Shown piece by piece: positions 27,401-38,244 of a stretch of 64,000 nucleotides of DNA (its first letter is position 1; each line of letters begins with the position of its first letter). A model generated the notes under the pieces. It was not told the origin of the DNA and searched no databases. It saw nothing but the letters and a program-made list of their open reading frames with translations. The stretch is from a virus, in IMG/VR virus record IMGVR_UViG_3300010371_000030, positions 32,001-96,000 of that record; one strand, 5' to 3'. A program made the position numbers and the translations under genes.

Positions 27401-27810
27401 GTGCCTCGGACGGGTTGGCGATCCTTGAAGAATGCCTTGACCATGGCCGCTCCGAACGCACTGGGATAGTGCGCCATCGGCTCCAGCCGGGCGATGTACA
27501 CCTCGCGCGTCACCATGTTGGGCCCATCCCCGAAGGTGACAAAACGATCGTCAATGTGTAGGGTGATGTTCAGGAAGCGCAGATCCAGCGTACGAAAGAC
27601 CACATAGCCGTCGGAATCGTCCTGCGTACCAATACGAGTGATGTCCAGACCGGCTTCCGTTCCCCAGAACACCTGTCCTTGGCAGTAGACCGTGTCGCCG
27701 AACGTCCCGCCCTGGACGGGCTCCCGATAGCCAGGATCTTCCTCGGCCACGCCCCTCTGAAAGGACTGGATGCCAATTCGGACGGGGTGCTGAAGGTTGG
27801 GCGAGGTCAT
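27397..27810 (-). CDS. Putative head closure (stopper) protein
   Basis: 137 aa, EDPGYREPV; ATGA overlap with the adaptor gene. Confidence 0.6.
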   Translation of the reverse strand: MTSPNLQHPVRIGIQSFQRGVAEEDPGYREPVQGGTFGDTVYCQGQVFWGTEAGLDITRIGTQDDSDGYVVFRTLDLRFLNITLHIDDRFVTFGDGPNMVTREVYIARLEPMAHYPSAFGAAMVKAFFKDRQPVRGT

Positions 27811-28604
27811 CGGATGTAACTGACGTTGGCTGGCGCGGCCATCGCGATGGGCGAACGGTAAGCCTTCATCGTGAGGAGCACCTCTGGATTGTTCGTCCAC
27901 CCGGCCCATGCCGACGGCCGGACAGTCTTGGTGTTCCCACCGGCGAGCACATACTTGATGTAGTGCCCATCGGTCCCTTCCTCCTGGATGTTCCCGAGCA
28001 CCGGAGGAAGGGGCGGAGCGGGGCTGGCCGGATTCACGTACACCGGGGTGAGCAGTTTCTCCAGCGTCAGAAGCAGCATCGCACGCTTGATGGGCTCGGG
28101 CACAGAGCCGTCCGGCTCTGTGTAGCCGAAGGTGCCATTGACCACCTGGTTCTGACGCCCTTTGCGGAACAGCATCCGACCAATCTGCATCGGCGCGACA
28201 TAGATGTCCATGTCGCCGTGCCTATTGTCGAGCAGCTTGATCCGCGGGTTGTCCCGGTCTGCAGGGTTGTTGTACACTCGATAGTACATGCGATCCAGCG
28301 GGCATTCGCCCGGCACGTCCCACATCGAGTTGAGCCAGAGTTGGTCGACAGAGATGATCGCGACGGGCAGATGAAGCGCGTCGCTGTCAGTCCCATCGAA
28401 CACCATCTGAAGTCGCTGTGGATAGAACCACTGGCGAGTCGCGCGCTCGATGTACGCCTGCGCCAGGCGAATGGCGCCCACGATCTGTAGGTCGGTGACC
28501 GTGTCCGGAATGCCCACCGCCCGTACATCCGACACATCGATGTACGGGAGCGGCGGAAACGGCGCCGGAGCGGGCGGAGGGAACGGAGGCACGGACCCGC
28601 TCAT
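27807..28604 (-). CDS. Head-tail adaptor protein
   Basis: YIDVSDVR, AQAYIERATRQWF, FDGTDSDALHLP, GTFGY...VPEPIKRAML. Confidence 0.8.
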   Translation of the reverse strand: MSGSVPPFPPPAPAPFPPLPYIDVSDVRAVGIPDTVTDLQIVGAIRLAQAYIERATRQWFYPQRLQMVFDGTDSDALHLPVAIISVDQLWLNSMWDVPGECPLDRMYYRVYNNPADRDNPRIKLLDNRHGDMDIYVAPMQIGRMLFRKGRQNQVVNGTFGYTEPDGSVPEPIKRAMLLLTLEKLLTPVYVNPASPAPPLPPVLGNIQEEGTDGHYIKYVLAGGNTKTVRPSAWAGWTNNPEVLLTMKAYRSPIAMAAPANVSYIR

Positions 28605-28607
28605 GGC

Positions 28608-29078
28608 TCAGAGCACTCCGGACCAGAGCGCCTTGTTCACCGGCGCCCAACCATCGGCGCCCTGCCCCGGGATGGGCTCCGCGTGCTCCACGGGGCCGCC
28701 TTTGCCCTTGTACGTCTTGACGACCGTCTTGGGCTTGTAAGTGGTGACGCGCTGAACTTCGGACAGGTTGCTGAAGGTGAACACGCCCGTTTCGGCGTCG
28801 CGTTCGTACGTAGCGGCGCTGTACATGTACTTGCCGCGCTTGTCCTCGCTCTTGCTGTAGATGTTGACGCTGAGGACGACCACCGAGGAATACACGTCCA
28901 CCACGTACGCGTAATCCTGCTTGGGGTCCATCTTCAGCTGATCCATCACCCACTTGCGCGCGGCGTCGCTCATCGCCTGGGTGAAGTCCTGAACGGACTC
29001 CCCTGTCACGAGCGGGATGTTGGCCTTGTGGACCACCGTCTCGTGCGTTACCTGCTTCTGTTCACCTTGGTCGCTCAT
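28608..29078 (-). CDS. Hypothetical head-module protein ending PVNKALWSGVL
   Basis: Clean 156-aa ORF; C-terminus nearly identical to that of the scaffold. Confidence 0.75.
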   Translation of the reverse strand: MSDQGEQKQVTHETVVHKANIPLVTGESVQDFTQAMSDAARKWVMDQLKMDPKQDYAYVVDVYSSVVVLSVNIYSKSEDKRGKYMYSAATYERDAETGVFTFSNLSEVQRVTTYKPKTVVKTYKGKGGPVEHAEPIPGQGADGWAPVNKALWSGVL

Positions 29079-29151
29079 GGTCGCTTCCCTTCGCTTGTCG
29101 ATTGTCGCCTAAACAGTGGCGACGGACAAGCCGCGGAGCGCCGGGAGCGAG

Positions 29152-29490
29152 CTAGCGCGGGCGACCTACACGAGACATGGCGATGCGCATGGACGCGCAA
29201 TTCTTGTGAGACATGACTACCAACTTGACGCCATTGGCAACGATGGTCAATCGTTCGCCGCCGTTCTGCCCGACGTCAGGCGCTACACACTCCATCCGAA
29301 TAGACGGGTGATCGAAGCCAACGGGGCGAATGATGCTGGCTTGGTATCCGTGTGGTGACACCATCGTTACGGCCGTCAACGACAGCTGTACTTCAGAACG
29401 CGCGAGCTTTGGAAGCCACTCGCGCGCCTGATCCTCGCTGGCTAGGTCGACCGCTACGGTGCGGCCATCGTCGTGGTGGAGCTTGAACAT
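29152..29490 (-). CDS. Hypothetical protein
   Basis: 112-aa ORF fitting the operon. Confidence 0.55.
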   Translation of the reverse strand: MFKLHHDDGRTVAVDLASEDQAREWLPKLARSEVQLSLTAVTMVSPHGYQASIIRPVGFDHPSIRMECVAPDVGQNGGERLTIVANGVKLVVMSHKNCASMRIAMSRVGRPR

Positions 29491-29515
29491 CGCGCAACCG
29501 GATGCGCGCGGCGAG

Positions 29516-30073
29516 TCACTTCTTGTGGAACGGGTTGCCGTCCGACTTGGCCTCCGGCGCAGTCGGCGAAGCGGCGACCGGGGCAGGCGTCGAGACGGCC
29601 GGAGCGGGCTCGGGCTGCGCCGGAGGCGTGGCGGGAGCGACTGCGGTGGACTCGGGCTTGGCCGCGGCGGCCGGACCGCCGGACTGCGCCGGAGGCGTGG
29701 CGGGACGCACGATGTCGAGGATCACGACCTGCTTGGCCATGCCCGGCGCCTTCTGGAGCAGGTTCAGCTCGTCCTTGGTCACGGTGCGCGTGGAGTTGGG
29801 CTGAACGTGAAAGGCGCCAGTCCGCCCCTCCGCCCGCTTGATCTTCGCCGGCATCTCCACCTGGATCACCGGCGCCGTCGGGCGGAACTGGATGTGATAC
29901 AGCTGGTCGGGCGTGTGGTCCGCGGCCACGCGCGACACGCGCTCCATCACCGGCCTGTGACGACCGCCGCCGCCGCTCATCGTGTAGGTTCCACCACCGC
30001 TCTCCTGTACGACGTCGACACCATCGACGCACAGGACCGCACCCACCGCCACGCTGTTCACGTTCGCCGACAT
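29516..30073 (-). CDS. Hypothetical protein with Pro/Ala-rich tail
   Basis: GAGG RBS, strong codon bias. Confidence 0.65.
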   Translation of the reverse strand: MSANVNSVAVGAVLCVDGVDVVQESGGGTYTMSGGGGRHRPVMERVSRVAADHTPDQLYHIQFRPTAPVIQVEMPAKIKRAEGRTGAFHVQPNSTRTVTKDELNLLQKAPGMAKQVVILDIVRPATPPAQSGGPAAAAKPESTAVAPATPPAQPEPAPAVSTPAPVAASPTAPEAKSDGNPFHKK

Positions 30074-30079
30074 GGCCCC

Positions 30080-30613
30080 TCACTCCTCGGCCGGAGTCAC
30101 CGCCGCCATCATGGCGTCGATGATGGCCGTCTTGGTCATGCTGAGGTTGATCTTGACGCCCATGGCGGGCAACCCGTCCGCCTGGGCTCGCTGGATGAGT
30201 TGGCTCTTGTTGAGCACTTCCAGCTCCGCGCGAGCGTACGACGGCAGCGCCGTGGGCTCGCCCTCCGTGGTCTCCTCGGCCGGCTCCTCGCCCTCGGACG
30301 CCTCGGGCTCTCCCTCGGCCGGCTCCTCGGACTCGTCTGCTGCCTCGGTGCCACCCTCCTGCTCCTCGGAATCGGGCGCGGCTTCGTCGGCCTGCTCGAC
30401 AGGCTCGGGCGCCTTCGTGCTGGCAGCGCGCGCGTCGAGGGAGCCCGACAGGATCGTGATCTCCACGCACCCACAGGACATGTAATGCCTGATCTCGGCG
30501 GGGTTGGCGGAGATGATGGACGAGCCCTTGAGGAGGGTGCGCCCATTGCTGGTGAACGACTGCGGGCCCGTCTCCTTGATCTGGATACGGGCGCTGAGAG
30601 GTGCATGTGCCAT
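30080..30613 (-). CDS. Acidic post-capsid protein with C-terminal helix-extension-helix (Rho-N/LEM-like) motif
   Basis: Glu-rich linker, then ELEVLNKSQLIQRAQ...SMTKTAIIDAM. Confidence 0.6.
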   Translation of the reverse strand: MAHAPLSARIQIKETGPQSFTSNGRTLLKGSSIISANPAEIRHYMSCGCVEITILSGSLDARAASTKAPEPVEQADEAAPDSEEQEGGTEAADESEEPAEGEPEASEGEEPAEETTEGEPTALPSYARAELEVLNKSQLIQRAQADGLPAMGVKINLSMTKTAIIDAMMAAVTPAEE

Positions 30614-30630
30614 GGCTGATCTCCCGGGGC

Positions 30631-30677
30631 GCTCGGGCGACGCCCCGCCATTACGTCAGCGGGGCGCCGTCGCGAGC
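30631..30677 (-). terminator. GC-rich stem-loop after the major capsid gene
   Basis: CGCCCCGC/GCGGGGCG core stem with extended imperfect pairing; weak U-tract. Confidence 0.45.
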
Positions 30678-30685
30678 AGCGGAGG

Positions 30686-31891
30686 CTACAGGTTGAGACC
30701 GATGTTGTGCCCGTAGGCCACGGCGTCGACTTCCTCCAGCTGGACGTCGACCTTGGTGGTGATGGCGTACTGGTTCACGCCCTTGAAGATGTCGCGATCC
30801 TTCTCGATGCGGACGTCGCGACCGATGCCGATGATCATGTTGTCCTTGTGGGTCAGCATGATCGTCGGGTTGGACTGGTAGGTGACCTTGACGGTCGCCC
30901 CGCTGCTGATGCCGCCGCCGACGCGCGTGATGCCGCCGCCGCTGTAGTCCACCGTGTAGTCGGTGTTCTCCACGTACGGCGTGACGGGCGTGTTCCCGAG
31001 CGTCACGGGGGTGACGACCACGTTGGTCACGGGCCCGTGGAGGAGCGACGTCTTGGTGGTGCCGGTGAGGACGATGTGCTCCACGACGATGGGCTGGAGC
31101 GCCCAGAGCGGGACGGGCACCGCCTTGATCCCGAACGGGCCCTGGAGCTGATCGGGCGTCTGGGTGGCCGCGTCGTCACCGAGCTTGCCGATGCGCGTGG
31201 CCATCTTCTCCTGGAACATCTGCCACAGGTCCGGGCTGAGGAACCAGCGCAGGTCCTGGAGGCGCCGACGGAACTTGATCGGCAGAGCGCGCATGATCTT
31301 GCCGAACACGCTCAGACCGATGTTCTGCCCCTGGAGGTCCACGACGTGGCCGGTCATGCCCAGCTTCTGCCAACCGTCGACCAGCGCCACGAAGGTGTCC
31401 TTGATGTAGCGCGTGCTGTCGCCGCCGTCGATGAGGTCGGACTCCAGGCGAGCGGGACCGAGCTTGTTGCCGGTGATGTACTGCTCCTCCAGGTCGTTGC
31501 CCGTCTGGGTCGCCATGAGGCGCACGATGGTGTCTTCGACATCGCGCCCCTCGATGTTGATCTCCGCGAAGATGTCGCTGATCTCGAAAGGCGTCATGAC
31601 CTCGTGCGGCTGGAGGGTCACCTTGGAGGTGGTGACGCCGCGACGGCGGCGCGGATCGGTCGCCTCCGACTTGGCCATGGCCGCGCGCTTCCCGACGCCG
31701 ATCTTGTCGATCTCCAACGTCTCGTTGGTGAAGCGCACCACGCGAGCGTTGTTGCGAAGGATGGTGATGTCGATGACGTAATCGATGAACTTGTTCGACT
31801 GCGCCGGGTTGAGCTTGCCTGCCGTGGCCAGCGCGTCGGTGGTGACCACCGCCTTGTTGACCAACTCTTCGTTCGTGACGCCCGTGCTCAT
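30686..31891 (-). CDS. Major capsid protein (HK97 fold, PBSX XkdG/P2-like)
   Basis: GKLNPAQSNKFID, EIDKIGVG, EINIEG, NDLEEQYITG, NMIIGIGRDVRIEKDRDI, EEVDAV. Confidence 0.92.
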   Translation of the reverse strand: MSTGVTNEELVNKAVVTTDALATAGKLNPAQSNKFIDYVIDITILRNNARVVRFTNETLEIDKIGVGKRAAMAKSEATDPRRRRGVTTSKVTLQPHEVMTPFEISDIFAEINIEGRDVEDTIVRLMATQTGNDLEEQYITGNKLGPARLESDLIDGGDSTRYIKDTFVALVDGWQKLGMTGHVVDLQGQNIGLSVFGKIMRALPIKFRRRLQDLRWFLSPDLWQMFQEKMATRIGKLGDDAATQTPDQLQGPFGIKAVPVPLWALQPIVVEHIVLTGTTKTSLLHGPVTNVVVTPVTLGNTPVTPYVENTDYTVDYSGGGITRVGGGISSGATVKVTYQSNPTIMLTHKDNMIIGIGRDVRIEKDRDIFKGVNQYAITTKVDVQLEEVDAVAYGHNIGLNL

Positions 31892-31946
31892 GATCGGTCT
31901 CTCCTCTTGGTCTATCGTCCTGTGTCCGCTGCCCCTGGTCGCCTGG

Positions 31947-32906
31947 TTACAGGACGCCGTTCCAGAGGGACTTCTTCACCGGCGTGGCGCCGCCCTCGCC
32001 TCCGCCCTCGGAGTTGCCGGCGGGGCGCGCCTTCTTGACGTCGGCCACCTCGCCTTCGATCTTGGCGAAGCGCGGCTCCAGCCCCTTGGCGACCGCCGCG
32101 GCGATGTCCTCGACGGTGAGGCTCTTGGACACCTCCATGCCGCCCGGAGCCGGCTTGATCTCGCTGGGGGTCGACACCGAGGTGGCATTGGGCAAGTTCT
32201 TGCCCGGACCGCCCGCGATGGGGTGGTCGCTGTCCGGGGCGACGTCGCCCACCAGCTCGTCCAGGAGCCCCTTGAGCGCCTTGAGCTTGCCCACGCGCTC
32301 GGGCGTCATGTGCTTGGCCTTGACGATGAGCGCAGCGAGACCATCCATGGTGAGCGGCGCGTCGCCCTCGTCGCCCTTCTTGGTCTTGGCCTCTTTGGTG
32401 TCCTTGTTCTTGGCGCCGTCCACGTCGGTCGCCGCGCCGCCCGGCCCGGAGCCCGCGTTGGGCTTCTTGTTCGGCTTGGGCGCGGTCTCCTCGTCCGTCT
32501 CGTTGGGCGACACGAGCTTCATCGTGAGGTCCACGCCGGACTTCTTGGCCTTCTCCTCCATGTCCTTCATCTGCTCGTCGGACATGCCCGCGGCCTTGAG
32601 GAACGCCTTGAGCGTCGTGCCCTTGGACTTGTCGACGTTGACCGTGTCCGGAGGCGAGACGCCGGCCAGCGCCGCGACGTTGGCGACGATGGCGGTGACC
32701 TCCTTGAGGATGTCGACCGTTGCATCGCCACCGCCTGCCGCCTTGACCACGACCTTCTCCGTGCCCTGTTCCTGGGTGCCCATCTCTGCCTCCGTCTGGC
32801 CCTTGTCTTTGGTGACGAGCCATTCCTGTTCATTGGCTGGCTCGCCAACCAGGCTCACCTCGCCCACCGCGAGCTTCAAGAATCGCCTGGCTGCTTTCTC
32901 GCTCAT
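31947..32906 (-). CDS. Capsid scaffolding protein with N-terminal protease-like EVSLVGEPAN strand
   Basis: Low-complexity charged/coiled protein directly upstream of the capsid gene; possible internal start at 32783 with GGAGG. Confidence 0.75.
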   Translation of the reverse strand: MSEKAARRFLKLAVGEVSLVGEPANEQEWLVTKDKGQTEAEMGTQEQGTEKVVVKAAGGGDATVDILKEVTAIVANVAALAGVSPPDTVNVDKSKGTTLKAFLKAAGMSDEQMKDMEEKAKKSGVDLTMKLVSPNETDEETAPKPNKKPNAGSGPGGAATDVDGAKNKDTKEAKTKKGDEGDAPLTMDGLAALIVKAKHMTPERVGKLKALKGLLDELVGDVAPDSDHPIAGGPGKNLPNATSVSTPSEIKPAPGGMEVSKSLTVEDIAAAVAKGLEPRFAKIEGEVADVKKARPAGNSEGGGEGGATPVKKSLWNGVL

Positions 32907-33767: not shown

Positions 33768-34847
33768 CTAGTCGTCGGCCAGATCTGCGTACGTCGTATC
33801 AGAGGCGATGTCCACGGTCGACCGGCAGCGGAAGTGGTACGGTGGAAGTGCCAACCCTTTGTCCGCCAACGCCTTGGACCCGCCCTTGGCCCGGATGGCG
33901 CTCATCTTCGCGCTTGATACCCACGGATGGGCGGCGCGTACTTCGTCGGGCGTCTTGGCCGCTCGGAGCGCCGCCATCTGATTCACACCATCCTGGACGG
34001 CGAACGTCGTGCCATTCATGTCCTCACAGAATGGCGTCGTGCGACTGTCCATTGGGTTGACAATCTCATACGTCGTCACCTTGATACGTGCGAACGATTC
34101 CAGCTGCCCCTGAACACGAGCGTTCGTAACAGAGTTGGCCGCCAACCCCTCAAAGTAATCCTCGTCTGTACCGCGCCAGCCACCGGGAGCGAAGACACCC
34201 TTGAGCTTCTGCTCCACGATGTCTTGAACCAGCTTACCGGCCGCCTGCCTTCCAAGTCCTTCCAGGAGGGCTTCGCCCACGCCTTCCTTGATGGCCGCGG
34301 CGACGTTCTCACCGTAATGCTCGCCAATCCAGAGCATCTCCTGATTCTGTAGAGCCTCGATGGCGCGCTTGTCTTGGAGATCAAACGACATCTCCAGATT
34401 GGCGTCCGGCAACGGCTTCTTGGCCGCTTTAGCCACCTTGGTCTCGGGCAGAACGTACTGGAGGGAGGCGGACGTCTTGCCCGTGGCCTTCTTGAATCCG
34501 GCGATGCGGGCAAGTCTGTACGTCTTGGCGAGCGACTGTACGTACACCTCCTGTACGTCGCGCGGCCACTTGTCCATCACGGCGTTCACCCGTGACGATG
34601 CTTGCGCCCGGGAGCCTCCGCCGATGATGACAGACTTCGCGGCCAGCGCGGCTTCCTTGGAACGGATTCGCCACTTGGCGAGCAGATACTCACGAAGGCG
34701 TTGTTCACCACGAGCGATTCGGGCCACCTCCGAGATGGCCAGCGCCTTGGCGACCAGCTCGTCTGATCGCTCCACATAGGCGTGTACGATGTCGATGTGC
34801 TTGGAACCGCACTCGCACACCAAACGTTCGCGCACATCCATGGTCAT
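33768..34847 (-). CDS. Minor head protein (Mu gpF / SPP1 gp7-like)
   Basis: DSRTTPFCEDMNG and PPYHFRCRS. Confidence 0.88.
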   Translation of the reverse strand: MTMDVRERLVCECGSKHIDIVHAYVERSDELVAKALAISEVARIARGEQRLREYLLAKWRIRSKEAALAAKSVIIGGGSRAQASSRVNAVMDKWPRDVQEVYVQSLAKTYRLARIAGFKKATGKTSASLQYVLPETKVAKAAKKPLPDANLEMSFDLQDKRAIEALQNQEMLWIGEHYGENVAAAIKEGVGEALLEGLGRQAAGKLVQDIVEQKLKGVFAPGGWRGTDEDYFEGLAANSVTNARVQGQLESFARIKVTTYEIVNPMDSRTTPFCEDMNGTTFAVQDGVNQMAALRAAKTPDEVRAAHPWVSSAKMSAIRAKGGSKALADKGLALPPYHFRCRSTVDIASDTTYADLADD

Positions 34848-36763
34848 GCCGCCTTGGCTTGCCTACGAAACAGATCTTCCACCACGCCCTGGAGCGTCAG
34901 AAGCTTCTTGGCAACAGACACGTTGTCTTCGTCGTCGCCGATGACCAACGACAGATCGTCGCCCAGAATCCCCAGCGCCTTCAGCGCGGTGACTTGTTGC
35001 CCAGGCTCTGAAGGATCAGCTTCGTTCTTGACCGCCTGTGCCATAGTGAGACTGAACGGAACATCGGCCGGGAAGGCATCCGGGAACGGCGGAAGGTCCT
35101 GCCCCAGAATCTCTTCCAGCGCCTGACGGGCGATACGGGGCGTCATGCCGCCGGTCTTCTCGGCGCCAGCCACGATCTTCACGAGCGCCATGTTGTCGGT
35201 CGTGTTGGGCGTGTTCGACTTGAACTGATGGAAGACCACGCCCATCTCCGGGAAGATGTCCCGGTTCATCATGTCGTCGATGAGCGCGCGCTCCGGCGAG
35301 AACACCTGCTCATCGCCCAGCGAGCGCGACGCCTGGATGGTCGCATAGCTGTAGTCCTGGCTCACGCCGATGAACGCCGGAGGGAGCCGGAACGCCCGGC
35401 GAACGCGCTCCGCGTTCTTTTCACGGTACGTGGTGAATAGCTCATCCGTGCGTTGCGTCTTGACCAGTTCTTTGGCGTCGATCTTCACCTGCCCACCGTC
35501 CACGCCGGTGTCCGTCTCGAATGGCTCGCCCTCCATGATGATGAACTTGGAGTAATTGTCGCTGCCCTGGATGTTCGAGTCGGTGAACGACATCAGGCGA
35601 TCGATGGTGCCCTGTGTCAGCACGCCGTTGGACACCATGATGAGCATCGACGGGATGTTGTTGTTCCTGAACGTGACGTAATTGATCTCCTCGGCCGCCC
35701 GGTCGCCAAAGATGGAGAGCAGGTTGCCGATGTATCGAGGGAGACCATACGGTGTACGGGCGCTGTACAACTTCAGATGGATGATCTCGGTGGCGGGCTT
35801 GCGCCCCGCCGGCAGCGGAGGGTACTTGTCGCCCTTCGGGTCCATGGTTCCATCGGGCCATTTGGCAAACTCGCCCGTCTCACGGTCCATGTTCCTCGGA
35901 TCCAGGTGCTCCTTGAACCACCTGATCCGGTATCCCATCGTCGTGAAGCGCAGGTTAGACGCGGGCCAGACGGCGCGCGTCTGCACGAACGGCCGAAAGC
36001 GCCGCCACTCCTTGCGCTTCTTTGCCACCACGCTGCCATCGAGCTGCAGCTCCAACACAGGACGGTCCACCAGCATCTCATCGAGGTCCAGAATGCCCAT
36101 CCTCATCTGATACGACGGGATGTGTACGAATCCGACGATGTTGCCATCAACGTCCCGCAGAACTTCGATGTAGGCGTTGCCCGTCGCTTCCAAGTCGCGC
36201 CGGACGCGGCGGCGAAACGCGGTGAATGACTCCCGCGTGGCGTACGTGAAGAAGTTGGTGAGCATGACGCGCTCGGCATCCGCCTGCTTGCCCAGGTCGC
36301 CCGCGCCTTCCGCGTTGCCTTTCGCGTCCATCTTCAGACGCGACACGTAGCGATGCCCCGTCGCTTCGCAGTTGACCTCCATCGCCTCGATACACTGTCC
36401 CAGCTCGGAGTTGTGCTCCACGAGCATAGTCAGCGTCAGCATGTCAAACGGAGGCTCGATGATCTTGCCGTTGAGAGCCAGTCCGCTCCAAGGATCTTCG
36501 GGCAGCACGTTGGACGGCTCCGGGGTGGCCGCCTTGGTGACGCTCGTCTCCTCCACCATCGAGCGCTCGGCATCGGAGCCCGCCCCGCCCGGCTTACGCT
36601 TGACGACATCGATGATCCGAACGCGCACTTGGCGCACCGCGTCCTGATTGGTCGCGTTGGCCCGAAGAGTTGGACCGCTCGTTTGACCCGGCACCTCCAG
36701 GTCAATCGTTTTGTCCTTGATGACCGTAGTCTCGCTGGCGCCCTTGCTCTTGTCGTCGCTCAT
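34844..36763 (-). CDS. Portal protein (PBSX family)
   Basis: IEPPFD, DLEATGNAYIEVLR, EIIHLK...YGLPRY, FRNNNIP, RAFRLPP. Confidence 0.93.
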   Translation of the reverse strand: MSDDKSKGASETTVIKDKTIDLEVPGQTSGPTLRANATNQDAVRQVRVRIIDVVKRKPGGAGSDAERSMVEETSVTKAATPEPSNVLPEDPWSGLALNGKIIEPPFDMLTLTMLVEHNSELGQCIEAMEVNCEATGHRYVSRLKMDAKGNAEGAGDLGKQADAERVMLTNFFTYATRESFTAFRRRVRRDLEATGNAYIEVLRDVDGNIVGFVHIPSYQMRMGILDLDEMLVDRPVLELQLDGSVVAKKRKEWRRFRPFVQTRAVWPASNLRFTTMGYRIRWFKEHLDPRNMDRETGEFAKWPDGTMDPKGDKYPPLPAGRKPATEIIHLKLYSARTPYGLPRYIGNLLSIFGDRAAEEINYVTFRNNNIPSMLIMVSNGVLTQGTIDRLMSFTDSNIQGSDNYSKFIIMEGEPFETDTGVDGGQVKIDAKELVKTQRTDELFTTYREKNAERVRRAFRLPPAFIGVSQDYSYATIQASRSLGDEQVFSPERALIDDMMNRDIFPEMGVVFHQFKSNTPNTTDNMALVKIVAGAEKTGGMTPRIARQALEEILGQDLPPFPDAFPADVPFSLTMAQAVKNEADPSEPGQQVTALKALGILGDDLSLVIGDDEDNVSVAKKLLTLQGVVEDLFRRQAKAA

Positions 36764-38244
36764 CAGATCAACCCCGGCTCTTTGTCCCTTGTTCGACGTC
36801 GCTTGCCGAGCTTACTAGCCAGCACGGCCAAGTCAAAAGCGTCGAACAGATCATCGTGTTGATGATTTGGGAAGAGCACGAGGTGTTCGATCAGGAGCAA
36901 CTGTGACTCCCTGAAAAACATCTTCTTTTCCTCGAACAGCGAGGACAGCTTCCAAGCCCGAGTCACCTTGTCCTTGTCGGTGATAACCGGGCGAAGCCTG
37001 ATGTCTGGGTCGGTGTCCTTGAGCGTTTGGTATTGGGCCGCTTGATACGCGTTGGTCTCAATCGCGATACGGATTGGGTCCCAACGCTTCGCATACTCCT
37101 TGATCTTGGCCGTTTGGGCGCCGAACCTCAGTTGGTCCTCGTAATGGTCCAAGACATAGAACGCAGTGCGGTCCTTGTTGACGCCAATCACCACGATGGC
37201 GAACTTGTCGTTGGTTTCATCTTCTCCAATCGCCAAGTCGACGCCCATGAACACCTGAAGTCCCTGGGCGTCAGGCCATTCCGTGTCGGGAACGCGCTGG
37301 CAATCGTCGTACTGGAAGATTTCACCCTTCATGGCGTCAGTATCATTCTGATACTGGGCGTTGAAGATGATCAGGCCGCTCTTCTCTCGCTTCGCCGTGA
37401 ACCACTTGGGCGGATACTTCTCGGGCCACGGCGACCGACCGAGTTCATCCAGCGCCTTGATGATATGCACGTGGTTCTTGAGCTCGTGAGAGATCAAGTG
37501 CCCATAGTAGTCCAGGTGGTGATAACGCGTCCCAAGCCGATGACGCTCACCGCGGTGCGGCACCTTCGGGTCAGGCGGCTCCAGCGTCGGGTCCAGCGTG
37601 GTATACGCCCAAGACACCAGCTTGTCGCGCTGGTGCTGCGTACGGCTGTTCTCCTCATCGACAATGTCATCCTCGATGATGACATCGTAATGCTTGGACA
37701 CGATGGTTCCGTCAGCCCCGACGCACGTGATGGAAGCCTCCTTGTTAGGGCTCCGCCGGGGCAGGACCTCAATCTCACGATTGTCCCACTTGGTGACCTT
37801 GCGAGCATCGTAGTACTGGCCGAACACCTCGGCCAGACGTTCGTTCTGCTCAAAGTGTTTCTTGATACCACGCAAGAATCCCTCCGCGTTCTGCGCCGTC
37901 TTGGAGGCGATCAGGATACGCAGGTTTGGATCCTTGAGAAGTAGATGAATACACTTCGTTTCCGTACAGAGCGTGGACTTGCCCGCTCCTCGGAAGATCA
38001 GCTGTAGGTTGTCGGGGTGGGCGAACTGCCACTTGAGCATGGCCACGTGGAACGGCATCACCGTCAGGCCAAGCACCGCCGCCGCCAGGATATCAATGCG
38101 ATTGTTCTGGATGACTTGCCGTCGAATCCACTCGTTGTTCATCGAGCGGCAACGGCGGTAATACTCCACCAGTTCGCCGTGGTCGGCTACTGCCAGCGCG
38201 CTGGCAGATAGCATGCCCGGCGAGGCGGCCTTGGCCGGGACCAT
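36763..38244 (-). CDS. terL: Terminase large subunit
   Basis: RGAGKST Walker A, IIEDDIVD Walker B, GTRYH, FNAQYQN, MGVDLA, IETNAYQ, HDDLFDA. Confidence 0.95.
   Translation of the reverse strand: MVPAKAASPGMLSASALAVADHGELVEYYRRCRSMNNEWIRRQVIQNNRIDILAAAVLGLTVMPFHVAMLKWQFAHPDNLQLIFRGAGKSTLCTETKCIHLLLKDPNLRILIASKTAQNAEGFLRGIKKHFEQNERLAEVFGQYYDARKVTKWDNREIEVLPRRSPNKEASITCVGADGTIVSKHYDVIIEDDIVDEENSRTQHQRDKLVSWAYTTLDPTLEPPDPKVPHRGERHRLGTRYHHLDYYGHLISHELKNHVHIIKALDELGRSPWPEKYPPKWFTAKREKSGLIIFNAQYQNDTDAMKGEIFQYDDCQRVPDTEWPDAQGLQVFMGVDLAIGEDETNDKFAIVVIGVNKDRTAFYVLDHYEDQLRFGAQTAKIKEYAKRWDPIRIAIETNAYQAAQYQTLKDTDPDIRLRPVITDKDKVTRAWKLSSLFEEKKMFFRESQLLLIEHLVLFPNHQHDDLFDAFDLAVLASKLGKRRRTRDKEPGLI

Follow-up and report, generated by a model that had tools for sequence, protein, structure and literature searches.

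A short C-terminal peptide shared by the scaffold and unrelated small proteins in a clade of uncultured tailed phages is probably an address label for the young capsid

Loading of proteins into HK97-fold shells by means of an address peptide is known from phage T4, where the address is an N-terminal capsid targeting sequence (CTS), from encapsulins, and from engineered P22 scaffold fusions. Here, we describe a putative system of this kind in a 64,000-nucleotide (nt) stretch of viral DNA (the window; positions 32,001 to 96,000 of the complete 105.8-kb IMG/VR virus record IMGVR_UViG_3300010371_000030), in which the scaffolding protein of 319 amino acids (aa) and a 156-aa protein, which we call module A, end in closely similar peptides (the tail). 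The group to which this genome belongs is a large clade of uncultured tailed phages of ~100 kb, and, by analogy to the systems discussed below, the tail is probably an address label that docks proteins inside the young capsid.

The scaffolding protein (SP) of phage 80alpha and the CpmB protein of SaPI1 have a common C-terminal helix-and-hook (RIIK) that binds the N-arm of the coat protein inside the procapsid and is exchangeable (PMC5644958). There, as in our locus, a scaffold and a second protein that differ elsewhere share a C-terminal peptide, which makes this pair the closest mechanistic precedent. However, the second carrier in that case is the competing, size-determining scaffold of a satellite, while here the second carriers are the phage's own small globular modules, and the amphipathic helix with RIIK contrasts with a tail of the form [TV]xKS[FL]WxGVL, which has no RIIK and is not predicted to be helical. 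Coat binding, established for 80alpha, is predicted here from sequence.

The T4 CTS is a leader at the N terminus that is removed by the gp21 protease at L/I-x-E, and it is not known to be shared with the coat-binding end of the main scaffold. An assortment of internal proteins, among them IPI-III and Alt, carries the CTS and is thereby brought into the scaffolding core of the prohead (PMC3012670). The tail is similar in being a short conserved peptide on unrelated proteins whose carriers vary between relatives, but it differs in being located at the extreme C terminus, where it is the scaffold's own end rather than an N-terminal leader, and the protease here is of the XkdF (S78_2) type. In the herpesvirus UL26/UL26.5, lambda C/Nu3, and Mu I/Z systems, protease and scaffold share a C terminus by way of in-frame nested genes, and the herpesvirus protease cuts off the coat-binding end at the M-site, thereby releasing the scaffold. 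These systems likewise use a common C-terminal segment to target more than one protein to the coat interior, and removal of the coat-binding end at the M-site resembles the release that we propose between K and S of V-x-K-S; in contrast, the carriers described here are encoded by separate genes and have unrelated bodies, the scaffold and module A families aligning over their last 17 columns only, and the protease is tailless. Encapsulins recognize a short C-terminal cargo peptide (GSL-type consensus) after a flexible linker and have no scaffold, portal, protease, or DNA. Both systems have unrelated proteins that carry a short peptide at one terminus, set off by a flexible linker, but the consensus here is a different one, and the terminase, portal, MuF, protease, adaptor, and sheath genes set the present shell apart from that of an encapsulin. 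The system described here would work like these known systems but has the defining features of none of them.

An initial, sequence-only reading of the window had reported that the scaffold and the 156-aa protein end alike, that a flexible Gly/Pro linker precedes each end, and that the two proteins are otherwise dissimilar, and our analysis bears out all three points. Both open reading frames (ORFs) were recovered at the positions given in Table 1, and 8 of their last 11 residues are identical, while the next-best C-terminal match in the window, among 825 stop-to-stop ORFs with a minimum length of 40 aa, is 4/11. Throughout the 105.8-kb genome, the motif was found at an ORF end in the scaffold and the 156-aa protein only. 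A flexible segment rich in Gly and Pro precedes each tail, and residues 111 to 156 of module A have no secondary structure in an AlphaFold2 (AF2) model, with a predicted local distance difference test score (pLDDT) of mostly 50 to 75. When the two family alignments were compared with hhalign, only their last 17 columns were matched, with 59% identity. The two genes are 2.9 kb apart, with the gene for the major capsid protein (MCP) and three other ORFs between them.

The tail is conserved in the scaffold family. We regard the 319-aa protein as the scaffold because it is encoded between an XkdF-type protease and the MCP; it has no family match of its own in Pfam or PHROG and shows a weak match to the N-terminal part of the protease family phrog_3017. 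In six close scaffold homologs (34 to 100% identity), the W, G, and L of the tail are invariant. The MCP has 979 homologs at an E value of ≤1e-10, the best 120 of which are 60 to 89% identical, and we used it to anchor a census of 80 IMG/VR loci with 10-kb flanks, in which the MCPs are 50 to 65% identical to that of the window. Immediately upstream of the MCP, these loci encode 65 unique scaffolds, of which 62 end in the tail. Across the 62 scaffolds, conservation reaches at least 80% in an N-terminal V-x-EVS-x-VD-x-PAN, at a few isolated columns, and at the tail's W and G. The scaffold bodies are only ~30% identical across the clade, compared to the 50 to 65% of the MCPs in the same loci, and a divergent scaffold body together with a conserved MCP and a constant tail fits a tail that is held by a conserved partner.

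The second carrier likewise belongs to a large family. Module A has no Pfam or PHROG family match, and a sequence profile search against PDB returned nothing below an E value of 0.17. A word-indexed search found two close homologs (P0002 and P0003, with 68% and 58% identity), both of which keep KALW[SA]GV[LI] after a diverged linker, and distant relatives in IMG/VR loci (32 to 37% identity) also retain the tail. We then searched a profile built from seven sequences against 1.84 billion representatives of clusters at 50% identity, which yielded 255 proteins at an E value of ≤0.001, including 62 at ≤1e-30. Homologs of module A generally keep the tail, contrary to what would have refuted the sequence-only reading: an exact terminal [FLMIV][WF]x[GSND][VILA][LVI] is present in 107 of the best 150 representatives, and in 7 more the motif lies 1 to 4 residues before the end. 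The family consensus end reads G-W-x-x-[T/V]-x-K-S-[F/L]-W-x-G-V-L-COOH; its G-W, about 13 residues before the end, is a conserved part of the linker, which otherwise differs in length among homologs and has whole domains inserted in some of them.

The tail also ends census-locus proteins that match neither the scaffold nor the module A family. Module B, a protein of ~88 aa (MPFPNEHAARQ...WLKxHGFK...) whose gene lies 5 to 9 kb upstream of the MCP gene, was seen as a free-standing, tailed protein in no fewer than 11 lineages (including L038, L049, L052, L054, L060, L073, L074, L078, L080, L087, and L090), while module C (LPDAAFAYIE...RALRHLPHH...VDLPHLRNAxARLxQT) occurs alone with the tail in L101 and L102. 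The modules are also fused to one another, as A-C-tail in L037/L007, L058, L074, and L078 (L087 has the same architecture with a degenerate end) and as B-A-tail in L050 and L071 (in L085, a protein built likewise has a truncated end). Without the tail, module C is fused upstream of the XkdF protease in L020, L026, and L066 and is found in L084 inside a 1,496-aa polyprotein that ends in a protease motif. Searches of Pfam and PHROG assigned no family to module B or module C, and neither module was found in the window's genome. Hence, one peptide ends at least four unrelated architectures, and the tagged set, drawn from the scaffold, modules A, B, and C, and fusions, varies between loci.

These sequence comparisons give good support to the view of the tail as a portable C-terminal tag. 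The modular reuse suggested by the sequence-only reading holds, as the tail is conserved and strictly C-terminal on otherwise unrelated proteins, with two further modules and fusions in addition. What did not hold is the picture of a one-off reuse in one phage; the tail is instead an ancient feature that characterizes a large protein family throughout a whole phage clade.

Structure prediction offers a further lead on module A. In the AF2 model (m3e184f27d7a4, built from 93 sequences), the core is predicted to be one helix packed on a four-stranded antiparallel sheet. Fold matches in PDB are generic (cystatin/NTF2/VirB8-like), with Z scores of up to 7.6, a range common for such searches, and Foldseek matches to PDB folds are no better than an E value of 0.028. 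A "protease inhibitor" reading of module A was rejected as an overinterpretation of such generic helix-on-sheet matches. Among predicted viral and Atlas models, the closest neighbors are segments of multidomain prohead-protease proteins (S78_2, S78, DUF2213, and YonD_N), with a template modeling (TM) score of about 0.5 and Foldseek E values of 3e-4 to 5e-3. This predicted likeness is a lead in line with the fusion data and assigns no function, and the module C-protease fusions, in which a module known to bear the tail elsewhere is covalently linked to a protein that has to work within the prohead, and the structure neighbors of module A both tie these modules to the head interior.

Our results lead us to favor, as reasonably probable, a reading in which the last 7 to 8 residues, with the consensus K-S-[F/L/M]-W-x-G-[V/I]-[L/I/V]-COOH and carried on a flexible linker, are a portable docking peptide of the prohead interior, with the MCP as the most likely partner, co-assembly of the modules, and release by the protease. 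The coat is the likely partner because a scaffold must bind the coat, because conservation in this scaffold is concentrated in the tail and the N-terminal block, and because no protein of the head gene module is more conserved than the coat. The scaffold would bind coat subunits via its tail. Module A, as well as modules B and C in relatives, would compete with it for a place in the assembling prohead core and be built in alongside it. The tailless XkdF protease would probably be brought in by the scaffold, whose conserved N terminus resembles a protease strand, and it may then cut after the K of [T/V]-x-K-[S/A], just before the tail, to free the globular parts. Of this scheme, the partner to which the tail binds, the encapsidation of tagged proteins, the cleavage step, and the final fate of the small protein, as retained cargo or a discarded core component, are inferred, and the proposed binding to the coat interior and loading into the prohead rest on analogy to 80alpha SP/CpmB, the herpesvirus scaffold, encapsulins, and the T4 CTS.

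Several observations weigh against this docking-peptide reading. Ten loci with full 10-kb flanks on both sides have no module A homolog, and eight of these are without any second tagged ORF. Of the best 150 module A representatives, 36 are off pattern, several of them being variants (DWHEVL and DWTGVI) or apparently truncated. When the 156-aa protein was compared by tblastn with 50,697 records of cultured phages, no homolog, and thus no cultured relative, turned up; the tail has no sequence likeness to any characterized coat-binding peptide, and "cargo" is a label for module A rather than a finding. Covariation between tails of the same genome is suggestive at most: identity over the last 7 residues is 91 in same-genome pairs versus 82.4 in shuffled pairs (P of about 0.02 for 24 unique genomes, uncorrected for phylogeny), as in L053 (GGMWKGVL/GGIWTGVL), L047 (KSMWEGVL/KSLWEGVI), and L090 (KEFWDGVI/KTFWDGVI), a weak signal that is confounded by how closely the genomes are related. 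When mutual information was computed between positions of the tail and columns of the MCP (61 pairs), by a method that is not phylogeny-aware, the most variable columns simply came out on top, so no signal can be read from it. A complex prediction of two MCP copies with residues 112 to 156 of the 156-aa protein, run with no controls alongside, gave no answer (score, 0.00) and counts neither way.

A bolder version, which we consider possible but rather doubtful, is a clade-wide, encapsulin-like loading system in which the scaffold peptide serves as a universal label and modules A, B, and C are shuffled onto it, packed, cut free by the XkdF protease between K and S of V-x-K-S, and delivered with the DNA, such that the peptide could load foreign proteins. 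If the docking-peptide reading is true, separately encoded, unrelated proteins with the scaffold's own end would represent a missing middle form between phage scaffolds and the cargo peptides of encapsulins, and the 255 module A clusters (50% identity) would make up a new family, so far without annotation, of proteins located inside the head. The ending KS[FL]WxGVL would then be a simple rule to predict virion-internal proteins in metagenomic phages, and the 7- to 8-residue tag could be tried as a tool to package foreign proteins.

How the protease fits into this scheme is suggested by the way in which it is split from the scaffold. The window's protease scores 105 bits against the PF14550 model (cutoff, 24) and thus belongs to this family. 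It ends without a tail 10 to 20 residues after GFSIGG, and the same split is seen in 55 related loci. In HK97-type and XkdF-type proteases, a strand like EVSLVxxPAN lies in the same chain; here, the conserved strand EVSLVxxPAN begins the next gene, that of the scaffold, whose start overlaps the protease end at an ATGA. A programmed frameshift or readthrough joining protease and scaffold was rejected, as the frame relation is scattered (frames 0/1/2 = 17/24/14 in the 55 loci) and no slippery site was seen at the ATGA overlap. The lack of a fixed frame relation indicates separate genes rather than a recoding event. A tailless protease next to a strand-bearing scaffold suggests that the scaffold may bridge protease and coat, and the scaffold may also complete or recruit the protease in trans. 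In several relatives, giant polyproteins of 1,288 to 1,784 aa carry the protease as their C-terminal domain (L084:4496-8986, L095:3691-9045, L108:4550-8956, L065:1-4215, L057:4972-8964, and L079:5189-9055), whereas the window has separate MuF-like and protease genes.

Candidate cleavage sites can be recognized on three proteins. In the NEELVxKA motif of the MCP N terminus, K13-A14 is invariant (42 sequences), giving a V-x-K-A form at residues 11 to 14, and a V-x-K-[A/S] form is common to this site, to DVKKA/KKARPA of the scaffold, and to the residues before the tail. Outside the W/G core, K at -8 and S at -7 are the best-conserved tail positions, with T or V at -10. The V-x-K-[A/S] sites are therefore candidate prohead-protease sites, and a cut at the MCP site would remove 13 residues. 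The conservation of V-x-K-[SA] lends some support to the idea, raised by the sequence-only reading, that the protease releases proteins just before the tail.

The same positions also feed the strongest rival explanation, that the tail is mainly a recognition or cleavage signal of the XkdF protease, or a docking site for it, and marks proteins for processing instead of anchoring them to the coat. The conserved residues at -10, -8, and -7, the invariant V-x-K-A of the MCP with its recurrence as DVKKA in the scaffold, and a protease that itself is without the tail would all be expected of such a signal. The coat protein (CP) and SP of 80alpha share an N-terminal cleavage motif. Both of these proteins are cleaved (PMC5744158), a parallel that also counts for a processing signal. 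However, a cleavage site need not sit exactly 7 residues from a free C terminus, where the motif is terminal in the 62 of 65 scaffolds and 107 of 150 module A representatives given above, and the residues that vary least (W, G, and the two hydrophobic ones at the very end) are located downstream of the putative cut. In addition, the scaffold must bind the coat, and the tail is its sole conserved element besides the N-terminal protease-like strand. We therefore consider a processing signal as the main role unlikely; roles in protease signaling and in coat docking are not exclusive.

Slightly less likely still, in our judgment, is a reading in which the tail docks elsewhere in the head and not to the coat, for instance to the portal, to the MuF-like protein, or, by co-oligomerization, to the core of the scaffold itself. 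The module A gene always adjoins head-tail joining genes, modules are fused to MuF-protease polyproteins, and an initial, shallow AF2 model placed the tail, with low confidence, as a strand alongside module A's own sheet. The deeper AF2 model, however, leaves the tail unstructured, a site on the portal only would offer 12 copies, which is hard to square with a bulk scaffold that uses the same peptide, and every characterized scaffold known to us (P22, 80alpha, and herpesvirus) binds the coat by its C-terminal end. A role outside head assembly, as a signal for degradation, localization, or a host target, could be imagined for a short, hydrophobic peptide but is improbable, since in the census the tag occurs on the scaffold and modules A, B, and C only, all of them in the virion-gene region flanking the MCP type, tracks the MCP type, and is found on proteins with no transmembrane or secretion features visible in their sequences. 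The match is short enough to raise the thought of chance, or of a leftover from a shared ancestral segment without common function, but this last explanation is contradicted by the retention of the tail over hundreds of clusters while linkers diverge freely, as well as by the gap to the next-best ORF end in the window, and we give it almost no weight.

The head genes form one module on the minus strand of the window (Table 1). The genome is myovirus-like as judged from its predicted genes, with terminase, portal, MuF, protease, adaptor, and sheath present. In L012, a large ORF directly follows the module A homolog, as the adaptor gene does in the window.

Table 1. Predicted head-region features of the window (coordinates are window positions)
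Feature	Coordinates	Strand	Remarks
Large terminase	36763-38244	-	
Portal	34844-36763	-	
MuF-like protein	33768-34847	-	
XkdF-type prohead protease, 276 aa	32903-33733	-	PF14550, E 3e-30, residues 140-257
Scaffolding protein, 319 aa	31947-32906	-	Assigned by position only
Scaffold N-terminal block VGEVSLVGEPANE (protease-like strand)	32829-32867	-	Invariant in close-homolog alignment
Scaffold KKARPA motif, K291-A296	32019-32036	-	Invariant in six closest homologs; ~25 residues before end
Scaffold tail PVKKSLWNGVL-stop	31950-31982	-	
Major capsid protein (MCP), 401 aa	30686-31891	-	phrog_1623, E 3e-66; presumed docking partner
MCP N-terminal motif NEELVNKA, residues 7-14	31850-31873	-	Candidate protease site
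Ig-like insertion in MCP, residues 282-342	30866-31048	-	phrog_807 "major tail protein with Ig-like domain," E 1e-5
Three small ORFs between MCP and 156-aa ORF		-	
177-aa ORF after MCP	30080-30613	-	phrog_10064, weak match, E 0.003
156-aa tagged protein (module A)	28608-29078	-	
Module A globular core, residues 27-110	28749-29000	-	AF2 pLDDT above 90
Module A flexible linker, residues 111-145	28644-28748	-	Variable length and sequence
Module A tail PVNKALWSGVL-stop	28611-28643	-	
Head-tail adaptor	27807-28604	-	phrog_442, E 4e-9; directly downstream of module A gene
Neck1-like gene and sheath gene		-	Beyond adaptor in the head module

Two neighbors of the tagged genes have features of their own. 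The Ig-like insertion of the MCP is absent from the shorter MCPs of PBSX and of Vibrio and Streptomyces phages, which aligned to residues 1 to 267 only. The 177-aa ORF after the MCP has a long, acidic, Glu-rich middle, and its C-terminal end (LNKSQLIQRAQADGLPAMG...) looks helix-extension-helix-like by eye.

Possible distant forms of the tail were seen outside the consensus. The capsid maturation protease of Streptomyces phage BillNye (L035:6617-7963; 449 aa), presumably a protease-scaffold fusion, ends in ...KSKGSKWGGRFLGLSDLQ, with a K-S-x-W-G-G-x-[FL] motif near, not at, the C terminus, and the scaffold of L008 has a similar end, ...KSGSIWGGRILPTR. Judging from these sequences, both ends may be distant tail variants. 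A degenerate DNA pattern for KSFWxGVL-stop, which is codon-restricted and hence too narrow for a census, matched 17 stretches in IMG/VR, namely, 8 scaffold ends and 9 chance noncoding matches in AT-rich phages. A near-identical noncoding stretch of at least ~180 nt recurs in AT-rich phage contigs of 94 to 159 kb (L021, L025, L027, L031, L032, L033, and L029) from several samples, IMG/VR sample 3300045988 among them. It was a chance find of the DNA pattern scan and, with every frame interrupted by stops, resembles a conserved noncoding element or RNA.

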